In this document: one piece after another, positions 21,236-37,358 of the stretch | Layout: each line of letters opens with the position of its first letter | How positions within the stretch are numbered: the stretch's first letter is position 1 | DNA from: an uncultured delta proteobacterium | GTDB taxonomy: Bacteria; Desulfobacterota; Desulfobacteria; Desulfobacterales; Desulfatirhabdiaceae | Length of the DNA stretch: 64,000 bases | Direction of reading: 5' to 3' | NCBI GenBank assembly: GCA_963845015.1 | Contig: CAWJRD010000008.1 | Location: 3,993-67,992, forward strand | Position numbers and translations under genes: made by a program | Notes under the pieces: generated by a model | Database searches by the model: none | The model's input: only the letters and a program-made list of their open reading frames with translations | What the model was told of the DNA's origin: nothing

Positions 21236-22443
21236 GGAGGACAGTGAAATGGCGAAGGAAAAGTTTGATCGGTCGAAACCGCATGTGAATGTGGGAACGA
21301 TAGGACATATTGATCACGGGAAGACGACGCTGACAGCGGCGATAACCAAGCATAACGGTTTGAAGGGGATGGCCAAATATGTTCCGTTTGACCAGATTGA
21401 CAAGGCGCCCGAGGAAAAAGAGCGCGGGATCACGATAGCGACCGCGCACGTGGAGTACGAGACCAAGAATCGCCATTATGCGCATGTAGACTGTCCCGGC
21501 CATGCGGACTATATCAAGAACATGATTACGGGCGCGGCCCAGATGGATGGCGCGATACTGGTGGTGGCCGCGGACGACGGACCGATGCCGCAGACCCGGG
21601 AGCACATTTTGCTGGCCCGTCAGGTCGGGGTGCCGACCATGGTGGTTTTTTTGAACAAATGCGACATGGTGGATGATCCGGAACTGATCGAGCTGGTGGA
21701 GCTGGAGCTTCGCGAGCTTTTGAGCAAGTATGATTTTCCGGGCGATGACACGCCGATCATTCGGGGCAGTGCCTTAAAGGCGCTTGAGAGCGATGATCCG
21801 GACAGCGAAGAGGCCAAGTGCATTTTTGAATTGATGGCGGCGATCGATTCTTTTATTCCGGAGCCCAAGCGGGACATCGACAAGCCGTTTTTGATGCCGG
21901 TGGAGGATGTGTTCAGCATATCGGGCCGCGGGACCGTTGTTACGGGCCGCGTGGACCGCGGGAATCGTGAAGGTTGGCGAGGCTGTGGAGATCGTGGGGA
22001 TTCGGCCGACGCAAAAGACCGTGTGTACGGGTGTTGAGATGTTCAGAAAGCTTCTGGATGAGGGTCGTGCGGGAGACAACATCGGGGTTCTGCTGCGGGG
22101 CACCAAGCGCGAGGAAGTGGAGCGGGGACAGGTTGTGGCGCATCCGGGAACGATAACGCCGCACACCAAGTTCAAGGCGGAGGTGTATATTCTGAGCAAG
22201 GAAGAAGGCGGCAGGCACACGCCGTTTTTCAATGGATACCGGCCGCAGTTTTATTTTCGGACAACGGATGTGACAGGGATACTGTCGCTGCCGGAGGGTA
22301 TCGAGATGGTGATGCCCGGAGACAATGTGGCGATAACGGCGGAGCTGATCACGCCGATTGCCATGGAAAAAGAGCTTCGGTTTGCGATTCGTGAAGGCGG
22401 CCGAACCGTGGGCGCAGGCGTCGTCAGCGAAATTCTGGAATAA
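21236..22443 (+). repeat. Direct repeat unit 1 (RBS plus whole tuf ORF), about 1.2 kb, near-identical to 36152..37358.
   Basis: Identity starts at ggaggacagtgaaATG and stops exactly at the TAA. The lengths are 1208 and 1207 nt, and only scattered substitutions were seen (for example F/Y at 21847). Confidence 0.9.
21249..22443 (+). CDS. tuf: Elongation factor Tu, copy 1, with one extra A at 21963/21964.
   Basis: [33 protein letters not shown]. ORFs 21249..22037 and 21907..22443 rejoin at GRVDRG|[12 protein letters not shown]. Copy 2 has gggatcgtg where this copy has gggaatcgtg. Confidence 0.95.
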
Positions 22444-26296: not shown

Positions 26297-30405
<4,109 letters not shown>

Positions 30406-30542: not shown

Positions 30543-33500
30543 TTGGAAACGCTATACGATTTTTTCGCCAAACCCATGGATCCCAAACGGTACACAGGTG
30601 TACGAATTGCCCTGGCATCTCCGGAGCAGATCCTTAAATGGTCCCATGGTGAGATAAAGAAGCCGGAAACCATTAATTATCGAACGTTTAAACCCGAACG
30701 CGATGGGTTGTTCTGCGCAAAAATATTTGGCCCGACAAAAGACTATGAATGTAATTGCGGCAAATACAAACGGATGAAACACCGGGGTGTCATCTGTGAA
30801 AAATGCGGTGTGGAGGTCATACAGTCCAAAGTCCGCCGGGAACGCATGGCGCATATTGAACTGGCCTGTCCCGTGGCGCATATCTGGTTTCTCAAAAGTC
30901 TTCCCAGTAAAATCGGCAACCTGCTGGATCTGACACTTAAAAACCTTGAAAAGGTTCTGTATTTCGATAGCTACATTGTCATTGATCCGAAAGAAACGAC
31001 CCTGGTGCGCGGCCAGCTTCTTTCGGATGATAAATACCGCGATGCCCTGGAAGCATTCGGCCCCAAATTTGAAGCCGGCATCGGCGCCGAAGCCATAAAA
31101 ACGCTGCTGGATGATATTGACCTTCAGGCGATTTATCAGCAGCTTCGGGTCGAAATCCGCACCAGCAATTCATCCGCCAAACGCCAAAAAATGGCCAAGC
31201 GGCTGAAAATCGTGGATGCCTTCAGGCGATCCGGCATCGATCCCACCTGGATGATCATGGATGTCATTCCGGTATTGCCGCCGGATCTGCGGCCCCTGGT
31301 TCCGCTTGAAGGCGGCCGGTTCGCCACTTCCGATCTCAACGATCTATATCGTCGGGTCATCAATCGGAACAACCGGTTGAAACGCCTGATCGAACTGCGG
31401 GCTCCGGATATCATCATTCGAAATGAAAAGCGCATGCTGCAGGAGGCCGTGGATGTTCTTTTTGACAATGGCCGGCATGGAAGGGTCATCACCGGAACCA
31501 ATAAACGTCCGCTGAAATCGCTCAGCGACACGCTGAAGGGAAAGCAGGGCCGGTTTCGCCAGAATCTGCTGGGCAAACGCGTGGATTATTCCGGCAGAAC
31601 GGTTATTACCGTGGGTCCGAATCTCCGGCTTCACCAGTGCGGTCTTCCCAAAAAGATGGCCCTGGAGCTTTTTAAGCCCTTTGTCTATTACCGCCTGGAA
31701 CAAAAGGGGCTGGTGCAAACGGTTAAAAGCGCCAAAAAAATGGTCGAAAGTGAAGATCCCCAGGTCTGGGATACCCTTGATGAAGTGGTGCGCGAATATC
31801 CGGTGATGTTGAACCGTGCGCCCACGCTCCACCGGCTGGGAATTCAGGCTTTTGAGCCGATTTTGATCGAGGGAAAAGCGATTCAACTGCATCCGCTCGT
31901 GTGTACGGCATTCAATGCCGACTTTGACGGTGACCAGATGGCGGTACACATCCCCCTTTCGGTCGAGTCTCAGATTGAAGCCCGCATCCTCATGCTGTCC
32001 AGCAACAACATCCTTTCTCCGGCAAACGGGAGCCCCATCATCGTTCCCAGCCAGGACATCGTTCTGGGTATTTACTATATGACCCGTGAGGTGGCGGGCG
32101 CCAAAGGCGAAGGCATGTTGTTTGCGGGTCCCGAAGAAGTTCGCTCGGCTTATGACGCCGGAGTCGCTGCCCTTCATGCCGGGATAACGGTGCGTATTCA
32201 TGGAAAACGCATGAAGTCAACCGTTGGCAGAATGCTGCTGTGGGAAATCATGCCCAAGGATACGGTGATGGTGCTTCGCCGCATCATGACGGCAACCCGC
32301 GATGAAGCCATGCAGGTAAAGGAAGAACTCGGCGGCGGCGCTTCATTTGCGGCATTGGTCCAAAAGTATTCCCAGCATCCGGACAAAGCGCAAAAGGGGC
32401 TGATCGGCCGGCTCAGAAGCGAGGAGTTCAAGCGGGTATTTCCGGCAACCGAAGAAGAGGTGGACGCGCTGTTTTCGCTGAATCCCGGCGATACCAGCGA
32501 AATCATGAGCTTTGACGACGCCTACCATGTTTTTGAAGTCATTGACCGCATGCCGGAGATTCCCTTTGATGTGATTAACAACGTGATGGATAAAAAGTCG
32601 CTTCGCGATCTGGTCGACTATGCCTACCGCAACCTGGGGCCGAAATCCACTGTCATTCTGGCGGACCGGATTAAAGACATCGGCTACCGGTATTCGACAG
32701 AGGCCGGTCTTTCCATTTCCATCGATGCCATGATTATTCCGGATGCAAAAGCAAAAATATTGAAACTTGCCGAAGAACGGGTCAAGGAAATCGAAAAGCA
32801 ATACACGGAAGGGCTGATTACGCCGGGTGAAAAATATAACAAGGTCGTTGATATCTGGGCCAAGGCTACAGATGATGTGGCCAACGAAATGATGGAAGCC
32901 ATGAAAATGGAAAAAGTCGATAAAGACGGCAAATCCATTTTTCAGGAAAGCATGAATCCCATTTACATGATGGCCGATTCGGGAGCCAGGGGCAGCAAGG
33001 ATCAGATGCGCCAGCTTGCGGGCATGCGCGGACTGATGGCCAAGCCTTCCGGAGAAATCATTGAAACGCCGATTACGGCAAATTTTCGTGAAGGGCTCTC
33101 GGTCCTTCAGTACTTCATCTCGACGCATGGCGCGCGTAAAGGCCTTGCCGACACGGCATTAAAAACAGCCAACTCCGGATACCTGACCCGGCGACTGGCG
33201 GATGTGGCTCAGGATTGCGTGGTCAGTGACGATGACTGCGGGACGCTGATGGGGGTCGATGTCGAGCCCTTGACAGAAGGCGGCGAAGTGATTCAGCGAC
33301 TTGGGGACCGTATTCTGGGGCGCGTGGCCTGTGAAGACATTTTGGATCCCTATACCGATGAAGTTCTGTTTACGACGGGAACCGAACTGGATGAAGTTGC
33401 GGTCAAGATCATTGAAGATGCCGGCCTGAAAAAAGTTCGGATTCGAAGCGTTCTGACCTGCAAATCCGATCATGGCGTTTGCGCCAAGTGCTATGGCCGT

Positions 33501-34956
33501 GATCTGGCGCATGGCCGCACCGTCGAAATCGGACAGGCTGTCGGGATTCTGGCGGCCCAGTCCATCGGGGAGCCGGGAACCCAGTTGACGATGCGCACCT
33601 TTCATATCGGCGGAACAGCCAGCCGCCGCGTGGAACAGGCGGATATCCGCGCGCGGGTGGACGGCACGGTAAAATTTCAGGATCTGGTTGTCGAGGCCAA
33701 TTCTGAAGAACACGAAATTGTCATGAACCGAAAAGGCGGGGAATTTGCCATCATCGGTGAAACCGGGCGAAAACTGGAACAGTTTTCCGTGATCTTTGGC
33801 GCCCATGTTCATGTGAAAGAACGATCAGAAAGTAAAGGTCGGAGATCTGCTGGCAACCTGGGATCCCTTTACCACCCCGATTATTTCGGAAGTCAAGGGC
33901 ACGGTAAAATTCGGTGATATTACACAGAACAAAACCATGCAGGAAAAAGTGGATCCGGTTACCCTGAAATCGAGCCGAACCATTGTCGAGTCCAAAAATA
34001 TCGACGAACGGCCGAGGATTTCGATCAAGGACGCTGACGGAAAGACCGCCAAGCTGCCAAGGTCCAGCGGATGGGCACGGTATATGCTGCCCGTGGACGC
34101 CATCTTGCTGGTTGAAGAAGGGGACGAAGTCAAGGCCGGCGATGTGGTGGCCAAGCTGCCGCGGGCCACGACCAAGACAAAGGACATTACCGGTGGTCTT
34201 CCGCGGGTGGCCGAACTGTTTGAAGTCCGAAAACCCAAGGACATTGCCGTCCTGAGTGAAATCGACGGCTATGTCGCGATTGCAAAGAGCAGCAAGAAGG
34301 GCAAGCAGAAAGTGACCATTACGCCGGTCGATGTCGGCGAGAAGAAAGAGTACCTGATTCCCCGCGGAAAACACATCAATGTGATCGAAGGAGATTATAT
34401 CCGGGCCGGGGAGCCGCTCATCGGCGGGTCCAAAATTCCCCAGGATATTTTGAATATCAAGGGCGAAATCGAACTGGCGCGATATCTGGTAAATGAAGTC
34501 CAGGAGGTTTACAGGCTTCAGGGCGTGCGCATCAACGACAAGCATATCGAGGTCATTGTTCGGCAGATGATGCGCAGGGTGAAGATTACACAGGTCGGAG
34601 ACACCGATTTTATCCAGGACGAGCAGATCGACAAGCTCCGGTTCCAGCAAGTCAACGCAGACATCGTCGATAAAATCTTCGAAGAAGCGGACAGTACCGG
34701 TAAAATTGTTGCCAGGCATGGCGTTCCGGCAAAGGCGGAGCCGCTGATTCTGGGGATCACCAAAGCGTCGCTGAGCACCGAAAGCTTTATTTCAGCAGCT
34801 TCATTTCAGGAAACCACAAAGGTTCTGACGGATGCCAGCATTGCCGGCGCCGTGGATGGCCTTCGCGGCCTGAAAGAAAATGTGATCATGGGAAGAACCA
34901 TTCCCGCGGGCACCGGATTTCCGGCGTATCGCGACATCAGAATCGATGCATCCTGA
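30543..34956 (+). CDS. rpoC: DNA-directed RNA polymerase beta-prime subunit. It starts at TTG, has one extra base near 33822, and carries a parvulin-like insert at 32262-32555 in addition to an SI3-type insert.
   Basis: Zn motif [23 protein letters not shown], the catalytic [35 protein letters not shown], and the trigger loop [16 protein letters not shown]...[13 protein letters not shown]. Confidence 0.97.
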
Positions 34957-35068: not shown

Positions 35069-35440
35069 ATGCCTACAATTAACCAGCTGGTAAGAAAGGG
35101 AAGAGATCGGGTCAAGAAGAAGACCAATACGCCTGCCTTGAAAGGAGCGCCTCAGAAAAGAGGGGTTTGTACCCGAGTATACACTTCAACGCCCAAAAAA
35201 CCGAACTCCGCGCTCAGAAAAGTCGCCAGGGTAAGGCTGACAACCGGTATTGAAATCACGGCGTATATTCCGGGTATCGGACATAACCTTCAGGAGCACT
35301 CGGTTGTTCTGGTTCGCGGGGGCCGCGTGAAAGATCTTCCCGGTGTGCGATATCATATCATCAGAGGAACACTGGATACGCTAGGTGTGGATGACCGGAA
35401 GCAGAGCCGATCAAAATATGGCGCCAAGAAACCCAAATAA
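35069..35440 (+). CDS. rpsL: 30S ribosomal protein S12.
   Basis: [51 protein letters not shown]. Confidence 0.98.
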
Positions 35441-35500
35441 ATTAAGATGTCGATCGCTTAAGGGTTAACAAGTAACTTTTTAGAGAAAATGGTGTAGGAT

Positions 35501-35971
35501 ATGCCCAGACGAAGAGAAATCGCTGAAAGAGTCATCATCGCGGATGCAAAATACGACAGCAAGCTGGTGGCCAAATTTATCAAATCAATCATGCGGGATG
35601 GGAAGAAGAGTATCGCAGAATCAATTCTCTACAATGCTTTCGGTATCATCGAAAAAAAGACGAGCGAAGCACCGCTGAAAACATTCGAACAGGCAGTTGA
35701 TAATGTCAGGCCCATCATTGAGGTAAAGTCCAGGCGCGTGGGCGGGTCAACTTATCAGGTGCCCACGGAGATCCGGCAGTCACGGCGGACAGCCTTGGGA
35801 ATTCGATGGCTCATCGGCTTTGCAAGGAAACGATCCGAGAAAAGCATGGCGGAAAAACTGGCAGCGGAAATAATGGATGCCGCCAACAACAGAGGATCTT
35901 CCGCAAAGAAAAAAGAAGATACCCATAAAATGGCTGAAGCCAATAAAGCCTTTGCGCATTACCGGTGGTAG
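35501..35971 (+). CDS. rpsG: 30S ribosomal protein S7.
   Basis: [40 protein letters not shown]...AHYRW. Confidence 0.98.
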
Positions 35972-36151
35972 TTTCATGGCTGAGGGCAGCCGCCTTCGCG
36001 AGCATGAATCGTACCGAAGTCAGTGCGCTATGAATCATAAGAGATAAGTCGAACTTCGCAGGGATAGGACACGTATTGGAACCGCCCTGCTTCAAAACGA
36101 TTATAAAGTGTACGCTGGCAGCTTGAAAGAAACGGATTGACCGTAATAAAA

Positions 36152-37358
36152 GGAGGACAGTGAAATGGCGAAGGAAAAGTTTGATCGGTCGAAACCGCAT
36201 GTGAATGTGGGAACGATAGGACATATTGATCACGGGAAGACGACGCTGACAGCGGCGATAACCAAGCATAACGGTTTGAAGGGGATGGCCAAATATGTTC
36301 CGTTTGACCAGATTGACAAGGCGCCCGAGGAAAAAGAGCGCGGGATCACGATAGCGACCGCGCACGTGGAGTACGAGACCAAGAATCGCCATTATGCGCA
36401 TGTAGACTGTCCCGGCCATGCGGACTATATCAAGAACATGATTACGGGCGCGGCCCAGATGGACGGCGCGATACTGGTGGTGGCCGCGGACGACGGTCCC
36501 ATGCCGCAGACCCGGGAGCACATTTTGCTGGCCCGTCAGGTCGGGGTGCCGACCATGGTGGTTTTTTTAAACAAATGCGACATGGTGGATGATCCGGAAC
36601 TGATCGAGCTGGTGGAGCTGGAGCTTCGCGAGCTTTTGAGCAAGTATGATTTTCCGGGCGATGATACGCCGATCATTCGGGGCAGTGCATTAAAGGCGCT
36701 TGAGAGCGATGATCCGGACAGCGAAGAGGCCAAGTGCATATTTGAATTGATGGCGGCGATCGATTCCTATATTCCGGAGCCCAAGCGGGACATCGACAAG
36801 CCGTTTTTGATGCCGGTGGAGGATGTATTCAGCATATCGGGTCGCGGGACCGTGGTTACGGGTCGCGTGGACCGCGGGATCGTGAAGGTTGGGGAGGCAG
36901 TGGAGATCGTGGGGATTCGGCCGACGCAAAAGACGGTGTGTACGGGTGTTGAGATGTTCAGAAAGCTTCTGGACGAGGGCCGGGCAGGAGACAACATCGG
37001 GGTTCTGCTGCGGGGCACCAAGCGTGAGGAAGTGGAGCGGGGACAGGTTGTGGCGCATCCGGGAACGATAACGCCGCACACCAAGTTCAAGGCGGAGGTG
37101 TATATTCTGAGCAAGGAAGAAGGCGGCAGGCACACGCCGTTTTTCAATGGGTACCGGCCGCAGTTTTATTTTCGAACAACGGATGTGACAGGGATACTGT
37201 CGCTGCCGGAGGGTATCGAGATGGTGATGCCCGGAGACAATGTGGCGATAACGGCAGAGCTGATCACACCGATTGCCATGGAAAAAGAGCTTCGGTTTGC
37301 GATTCGTGAAGGCGGCCGGACCGTGGGCGCAGGCGTCGTCAGCGAAATTCTGGAATAA
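36152..37358 (+). repeat. Direct repeat unit 2 (RBS plus whole tuf ORF).
   Basis: See 21236..22443. Confidence 0.9.
36165..37358 (+). CDS. tuf: Elongation factor Tu, copy 2 (intact, 397 aa).
   Basis: Full-length ORF with G1-G4 motifs [13 protein letters not shown] and NKCD. It lies directly after rpsG with no fusA between them. Confidence 0.98.

Follow-up and report, generated by a model that had tools for sequence, protein, structure and literature searches.

Why should rpoC, the gene encoding the β′ subunit of RNA polymerase (RNAP), carry 98 additional codons between two blocks that are adjacent in Escherichia coli, and is the product of these codons an enzyme, a binding module or a tolerated passenger? 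We addressed this question in a window (i.e., the whole stretch of DNA analyzed) of 64,000 nt from contig CAWJRD010000008.1 (GCA_963845015.1) of an uncultured delta proteobacterium of the Desulfatirhabdiaceae; all coordinates are those of the window. A preliminary description of this DNA had proposed that the additional codons encode a complete parvulin domain of the PpiC type. Our analysis leaves hardly any doubt that they encode a real parvulin-fold, lineage-specific insert in RNAP β′.

The position and frame of the insert were established by translation and alignment. In the window, rpoC occupies 30543..34956 of the forward strand (as do, within it, all rpoC features given below) and was delimited by open reading frames (ORFs), Pfam matches and comparison with L004, a close relative with 94.5% DNA identity to the window. 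The gene is divided into two ORFs, 30543-33917 and 33937-34956, the first of which (1124 codons) matches Pfam Rpb1 domains 1-5. The insert (32262-32555) lies in frame within this first ORF as 98 stop-free residues, β′ residues 574-671. It is preceded directly by a conserved 15-residue β′ block (32217..32261; residues 559-573, equivalent to E. coli 572-586) and followed directly by a conserved 20-residue block (32556..32615; residues 672-691, equivalent to E. coli 587-606). When RpoC of L004, standing in for that of the window, was aligned with RpoC of E. coli MG1655, a single clean 98-residue gap appeared in the E. coli protein, at G586/L587, and an insert-free RpoC fragment (P0032) joins the two flanking blocks directly, as ‘IVPKR-LPFESINKV’. 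Translation and alignment thus agree on the claim that 98 in-frame codons split β′ blocks that are contiguous in E. coli.

Other landmarks of the subunit are in place. The catalytic NADFDGD motif (31914..31934), which served as a position reference, occupies β′ residues 458-464, with numbering identical to that of E. coli. The trigger-loop SI3 region (β′In6-type) falls at approximately 33624..34176, as judged from the alignment with E. coli 943-1130, across which L004 aligns without a large gap; SI3 is therefore present apart from the parvulin insert, as had been stated.

Pfam assigned the insert to the rotamase families. The 98 residues alone matched PF00639 (Rotamase) at 40.6 bits (E=5.2e-10), over profile positions 17-97 of 97, and PF13616 at 24.5 bits, both above the curated cut-offs of 21.7 and 22.5 bits, respectively; within the full 1124-aa ORF, the PF00639 score was 34.9 bits. 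A sequence search of the PDB returned PrsA parvulin domains as the best matches (6vj6, E=1e-6), followed by SurA, PpiD and PpiC, the last of which was a weak match (1jns, E=0.27).

The predicted structure gave the same answer. An AlphaFold2 model of the insert, calculated from an input alignment of nine related insert sequences, had a predicted local distance difference test score (pLDDT) of 92.8 and a predicted template modeling score (pTM) of 0.84, with the predicted topology β1-α1-α2-α3-β2-α4-α5-β3-β4. In a Foldseek comparison with the PDB, the top 50 matches were all parvulins (probability 1.00), with template modeling (TM) scores of 0.77-0.84 for PrsA, 0.75 for SurA and ~0.7 for Pin1; RNAP chains were absent from these top 50 matches. 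The SurA P1-peptide complex 2pv1 was also among the fold matches. Together with the recurrence of the insert in 62 other genomes, described below, the Pfam, PDB and structural results uphold the assignment to a complete parvulin domain. When the insert was modeled with 54 and 69 flanking residues (221 aa), its blocks kept pLDDT values of 81-94, and the flanks were poorly modeled (pTM 0.54), so that this larger model is uninformative on packing against β′. In the predicted structure, the two junctions coincide with the start of β1 and the end of β4, which would leave no linkers and would attach the domain to the polymerase through two adjacent terminal strands. As judged by Pfam and AlphaFold2, the parvulin domain, in which the pocket helix is followed by a six-residue extension, accounts for the whole 98 residues with no surplus sequence. 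Because the parvulin fills the insert in this way, and because insert and flanks diverge together (see below), nothing prompted us to suspect an intein, although motifs and repeats were not the subject of a scan of their own.

We also asked which parvulins resemble the insert most closely. Against a hidden Markov model (HMM) of the insert, the inserts of full-length RpoC proteins scored >100 bits, about twice the score of the PrsA-like lipoprotein foldases (P0161 and P0128), which, at ~60 bits, were the best single domains outside RNAP. This ranking suggests that a PrsA/SurA-type domain was the donor.

The distribution of the insert was surveyed in one genome per GTDB species, using a five-sequence alignment and two peptide patterns. 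An insert at the same site was found in 62 species-representative genomes from many independent studies, all of them metagenome-assembled genomes (MAGs) or single-amplified genomes (SAGs). Nearly all are labeled Desulfobacterales, Desulfobacteraceae or Deltaproteobacteria, a few bear broader labels, and one is assigned to the Nitrospinaceae; the Olavius algarvensis Delta 4 symbiont is among the carriers. Desulfobacterales, already named as the lineage in which to look, is thereby confirmed as the carrier lineage. In most loci the rpoC ORF is uninterrupted at ~1465-1483 aa (1470 aa in L010 and 1465 aa in L037, for example). An HMM search of 1.84 billion representative proteins, which was independent of the scan patterns, recovered further insert-bearing RpoC fragments, and an exact look-up showed that full-length insert-bearing RpoC proteins are public, one 90%-identity cluster alone comprising 110 members. 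In contrast, a protein word search with the insert only returned no match, and its profile version returned one fragment; we attribute the small number of such matches to the word index and to the clustering of full-length RpoC, rather than to rarity of the insert.

Several individual loci deserve comment. The carrier labeled ‘uncultured Nitrospinaceae bacterium’ (L037, CAXMTB010000006.1) encodes an RpoC that falls in a 90% cluster with proteins of Desulfobacterales MAGs, and its label is probably a taxonomic mislabel or the result of mis-binning. The insert of L044 (6001-6318) contains an extra eight-residue loop, VNASEQSV, between helices 1 and 2, and is the sole length variant among 63 inserts. 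On contigs L064 and L065 (ERZ25039487/ERZ25039514; 0.3-1.4 Mb), rpoB and rpoC are shattered into short genes by frameshifts, which explains why the protein database gave only RpoC fragments for the clade.

We compared the evolution of the insert with that of the surrounding gene. The pairwise ratio of nonsynonymous to synonymous substitution rates (dN/dS) of the insert ranged from 0.10 in the sub-clade of the window to 0.19 in a second sub-clade, against 0.02-0.06 for flanking rpoC. Distances in the insert and in its flanks were correlated (Pearson 0.85), with the insert diverging ~2.5 times faster, and the insert is only slightly richer in GC than the remainder of rpoC. Related RpoC fragments without the insert also exist (P0024, P0029 and P0032); over the N-terminal flank, insert-bearing sequences share a mean identity of 87% with one another vs ≤80% with these non-insert relatives, a comparison that, with 164 columns, is a weak test. 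Taken together, the dN/dS values, co-divergence, composition and flank identities argue for one old insertion, followed by vertical inheritance under purifying selection.

Could the insert nevertheless be an assembly chimera or a sequencing artefact, for instance a fragment of a parvulin gene mis-joined into rpoC? The window does hold single-nucleotide errors. Relative to L004, an extra G at 33819 frameshifts rpoC, and two insertions of one base each, at 29237 and 29751, fall in rpoB; deleting the extra bases restores a 1470-aa RpoC and a 1368-aa RpoB. The first copy of tuf (21249-22443) is likewise split into two overlapping ORFs, one matching GTP_EFTU and the next D2+D3. These 1-nt breaks in essential genes look like residual long-read indel errors rather than biology, and the extra G at 33819 most likely arose during sequencing or assembly and is unrelated to the insert. 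We also considered that rpoC might be a pseudogene or undergo a programmed frameshift, and rejected both possibilities: rpoB and tuf share the 1-nt errors, and L004 is clean at the rpoB and rpoC sites. Such errors do not reach the insert, in or near which there is no indel relative to L004. Further, the insert occurs at the same codon position in the 62 independent genomes, including short-read assemblies (SPAdes- and MEGAHIT-style) with an intact rpoC, and it is under purifying selection and co-diverges with its flanks. An artefact thus has practically no chance of being the explanation, and a chimera is excluded.

The same comparisons revealed some features of the neighborhood. A 12-nt in-frame length difference between the window and L004 at 27010-27016, in a variable part of rpoB, is probably ordinary variation. 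Downstream of rpoC, at 35069-37358, the str-operon genes are ordered rpsL-rpsG-tuf, tuf following rpsG without an intervening fusA, an order also found in the related long-read contig L065 (9324-11506). The window contains two copies of tuf: the split copy, which lies beside a tRNA-Thr/Tyr/Gly/Thr cluster, and a second at 36165-37358.

To judge whether the insert could still act as a prolyl isomerase, we aligned the 63 inserts with Pin1 and PpiC and with Bacillus cereus PrsA, taken from the PDB search. Most members preserve the dual-His motif. Its first His, Pin1 H59, corresponds to R7 of the window insert (32280..32282) and is His in 45 of the 63 sequences, Arg in 17 (including the window) and Ser in one; its second His, Pin1 H157, corresponds to H89 (32526..32528) and is His in 55 and Asn in eight. 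The hydrophobic proline pocket is kept in all: I48, F56 and F60 (segment I48-F60, 32403..32441) align with Pin1 L122, M130 and F134, the first of these positions being Ile, Leu or Val in 62/63 sequences and the other two Phe in every one. F56 and F60 are also mostly retained in the fragments found by HMM, which were not selected by pattern. These features, along with the complete and confidently predicted fold, favor the possibility that RNAP has a built-in, active prolyl isomerase, which would catalyze the cis/trans isomerization of a Pro bond in the polymerase or in a factor bound to it (σ, NusG, Rho or Gre/DksA), in which case the insert would be a bacterial counterpart, acting in cis, of Pin1/Ess1 working on Pol II's C-terminal domain (CTD). 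Two further points lie on this side. A few members keep an Asp, namely L048, which carries it at the position of Pin1 C113 (‘FSDD’), and L056 and L061, which keep the Asp of a GDIG motif (equivalent to Pin1 D121). In addition, the free cytoplasmic PpiC of E. coli co-purifies with NusG, Rho, SuhB and RpoA (PMC7353009), which offers a lead toward transcription factors as conceivable partners of the insert.

The remaining catalytic residues point the other way. The position of the catalytic Cys/Asp, Pin1 C113, corresponds to H39 of the window insert (32376..32378) and is occupied by Gly (29), Ser (18), His (12, including the window), Asp (2), Ala (1) or Val (1); it is thus Gly, Ser or His in 59 of 63 inserts, with the residue differing between sub-clades. 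The equivalents of Pin1 S154 and T152 are variable as well, and the sub-clade of the window additionally has Arg for the first His, such that the window reads Arg/His/His at the positions of H59/C113/H157 and lacks the catalytic residue set of a parvulin. This pattern resembles progressive catalytic decay under continued selection for the fold, and the few members with an Asp at either position (L048, L056 and L061) fit such a decay from an active ancestor. We therefore consider an active isomerase unlikely. The active-site residues that survive in L048, L056, L061 and L062 differ by sub-clade, and the order of loss could be reconstructable.

The preliminary description had already suspected a degenerate active site, citing apparent replacement of the first His and of the Asp of GGDLG. 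Its conclusion stands, but not all of its reasoning: what decides the matter is the equivalent of C113, found in the window within YSQH, and not the GGDLG Asp, which is the equivalent of Pin1 D121 and is Leu in 40/63 inserts and Asp in only 3/63. Similarly, the change of the first His to Arg is correct for the window but is specific to its sub-clade, most inserts having retained His.

The surface of the domain offers further clues. The phosphate-binding basic loop of Pin1 (K63/R68/R69 region) is absent from the inserts or gapped in them, and the domain is acidic, with a mean net charge of -6.7 (-5 for the window insert). Binding of nucleic acid, as in Par14, was considered and rejected on account of this acidity. 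The positions forming the rim of the pocket (the equivalents of Pin1 L61, T152 and S154) vary across the clade. The hydrophobic pocket that persists beneath this variable rim may bind a proline-containing peptide, as had been proposed for the insert; because the rim varies, there is no sign of one ligand conserved throughout.

Where on the polymerase would such a surface be displayed? In the sequence of E. coli β′, the residues that form ppGpp site 1 (K615-Y626) follow ~30 residues downstream of the insert site. On the β′ domain map of Alvarez-Carreño et al. (2024, PMC11515920), the insert site (E. coli G586/L587) falls at the C-terminal edge of β′-bD4, a bacteria-specific element within the universal pore-1 domain, β′-uD3; at the matching place archaea carry aD2 (PMC11515920, Table 2). 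Archaeal Rpo8 is peripheral, occupying a crevice formed by Rpo1N 507-596 (PMC2675907), a segment that, by comparison of the domain maps, corresponds to uD3 plus aD2. On this basis, the parvulin would protrude from the pore-1 region at a peripheral position exposed to solvent. The placement of the Bacillus subtilis ε subunit was also considered as a guide to the three-dimensional position of the insert, and was uninformative.

A peripheral location at a site that accepts insertions raises the possibility that the domain is a passenger, which came to rest in a permissive surface loop, has no specific ligand or regulatory role and is kept only since its unfolding or deletion would harm an essential enzyme. 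Besides the bacterial bD4 and the archaeal aD2, some lineages carry further inserts in bD4 (PMC11515920), and the relaxed evolution of the parvulin domain is in keeping with such tolerance: it has changed ~2.5 times faster than its flanks, its dN/dS is 3-5 times higher than theirs, and variation affects the rim of the pocket and the majority of surface positions. On the other hand, neither deletions nor truncations of the insert occur in the 62 genomes and the further fragments, where it keeps its full length down to ~30% identity, and dN/dS values of 0.1-0.19 still represent strong constraint. Moreover, three charged residues outside the core, D41, R52 and E55, are highly conserved, albeit with some bias from the search patterns. 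A passenger is a possible explanation, but a rather doubtful one.

We somewhat favor a different reading, in which the insert is a catalytically degenerate, non-enzymatic docking or surface module of RNAP. According to this model, a parvulin domain would have been inserted once, in an ancestor of the uncultured Desulfobacterales clade, and then inherited vertically. Its prolyl-isomerase function would have been lost, leaving a non-enzymatic surface module comparable to SurA domain I and the parvulin domain of PpiD, both of which lack peptidyl-prolyl isomerase (PPIase) activity, with the peptide-binding site of PpiD still thought to be relevant (PMC2956729). Fixed to the periphery of the polymerase through its adjacent β1 and β4 strands, without linkers, the domain may then offer a surface on which a partner protein docks with a peptide segment, or may shape that face of the enzyme sterically.

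Several considerations weigh against the docking or surface module. The non-catalytic state is deduced from residue substitutions, and some substitutions in the catalytic site are tolerated in other parvulins; the His that the sub-clade of the window conserves in place of C113 is conceivably catalytic. Variability at the rim (the L61, T152 and S154 equivalents) speaks against one conserved ligand and fits a structural role equally well, and the conserved Phe residues belong to the core of the fold as well as to the pocket. Retrieval with two patterns makes the conservation of R-x-x-E-F-K-R-x-F and AYH partly an effect of ascertainment. Finally, the peripheral placement is derived from the domain maps of two papers.

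A more ambitious version of the model would make the insert a functional proline-directed clamp or isomerase acting on a transcription factor (e.g., NusG, Rho, σ or a secondary-channel factor) or on a segment of RNAP, with isomerization perhaps occurring in the sub-clades that retain an Asp. We regard this version as more improbable still than an active isomerase in general.

How novel is such an insert? Our comparison with known β′ inserts drew on a 2024 survey of sequences, structures and AlphaFold models, and on Opalka 2010. In the survey, the lineage-specific inserts of β′ consist only of HABAS, BEAN and sLC (PMC11515920), and parvulin, rotamase and isomerase are unmentioned (PMC11515920). 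The insert described here is not built from these recurrent RNAP modules (SBHM/HABAS, BBM2/BEAN and sLC), its fold being that of a parvulin. A full-text literature search, the coverage of which excluded the Lane & Darst catalogue, found no description of a parvulin domain in RpoC, so that, within the survey and this search, the claim that a rotamase fold is absent from the catalogued RNAP inserts holds. The proteins themselves are not new to databases: insert-bearing sequences are public as ‘DNA-directed RNA polymerase subunit beta′’, with precomputed Pfam matches to Rotamase. One partial RpoC of the clade (MBU1161171.1; 1002 aa, in the cluster of L037) even bears the PGAP name ‘peptidylprolyl isomerase, partial’, and the insert thus already misleads automatic annotation. 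As far as we have searched, then, the phenomenon of a lineage-specific RNAP insert is known, but this fold was previously unreported for such inserts.

Lineage-specific inserts are the main difference among bacterial RNAPs, and the folds so far described for them are very few; a parvulin domain, which stems from a family of protein-folding enzymes, fixed across an uncultured Desulfobacterales clade makes that repertoire wider. The insert is also a natural case of the reuse of an enzyme domain, in which catalytic residues decay while fold and pocket persist, and it would provide a clean molecular synapomorphy for the clade. It maps to the pore-1 site, where archaea and eukaryotes hold Rpb8, and invites comparison with Pin1/Ess1 on Pol II. 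If the domain does bind a partner, it would constitute a new interface between RNAP and a factor; if it proves to be a proline-directed clamp or isomerase, it would be a cis-encoded counterpart of Pin1/Ess1 and the CTD, and a new regulatory principle for bacterial transcription. This significance is tempered by the uncultured state of the hosts and by the probability that the domain is not an enzyme.

Comparison with other systems helps to place the insert. Like known RNAP inserts, such as SI3/β′i6 of E. coli β′ and β′i2 of Thermus, it is an independently folding domain set in frame in a surface loop between universal β′ segments; it is likewise, as far as its distribution suggests, confined to one lineage, and is inherited vertically, faster evolving than the core, and situated in the insertion-accepting bD4/pore-1 region (PMC11515920). 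Unlike them, it has a parvulin fold, derives from an enzyme family with a cellular role of its own, and occupies a position, G586/L587 at the edge of bD4, that is not a well-populated site.

Among parvulins, the nearest parallels are SurA domain I, PpiD and PrsA, in which a parvulin also occurs as an inserted domain with adjacent terminal strands; PrsA and SurA are the closest matches to the insert, and SurA domain I and PpiD share with it degenerate catalytic residues and a remaining pocket. The host protein, however, is here a cytoplasmic transcription enzyme and not a periplasmic or extracytoplasmic chaperone, and the insert lacks a SurA_N-type module while having the six-residue extension and a strongly acidic surface. 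E. coli PpiC (Par10), a minimal single-domain parvulin of ~92 aa, resembles the insert in size class and in being cytoplasmic, but is free-standing and active, with His/Cys/His conserved, whereas the insert is nearer to the PrsA-type domains.

Two comparisons extend beyond bacteria. In both Pin1/Ess1 and the insert, a parvulin fold (similar enough to yield the Pin1 TM score given above) is physically tied to the largest subunit of a multisubunit RNAP. Pin1 and Ess1, however, are separate, active and phospho-Ser/Thr-Pro-specific proteins whose targets, reached in trans, are the CTD repeats, while the insert is fused in cis and has neither the catalytic Cys/Asp nor the phosphate-binding loop, and a CTD is absent from bacterial β′. 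Rpo8/Rpb8 is a positional analogue only: it too adds a small extra domain at the pore-1 periphery of the largest subunit (PMC2675907, PMC11515920), but does so as a separate OB-fold subunit without homology to the parvulin insert, and its spatial equivalence would follow from the domain maps.

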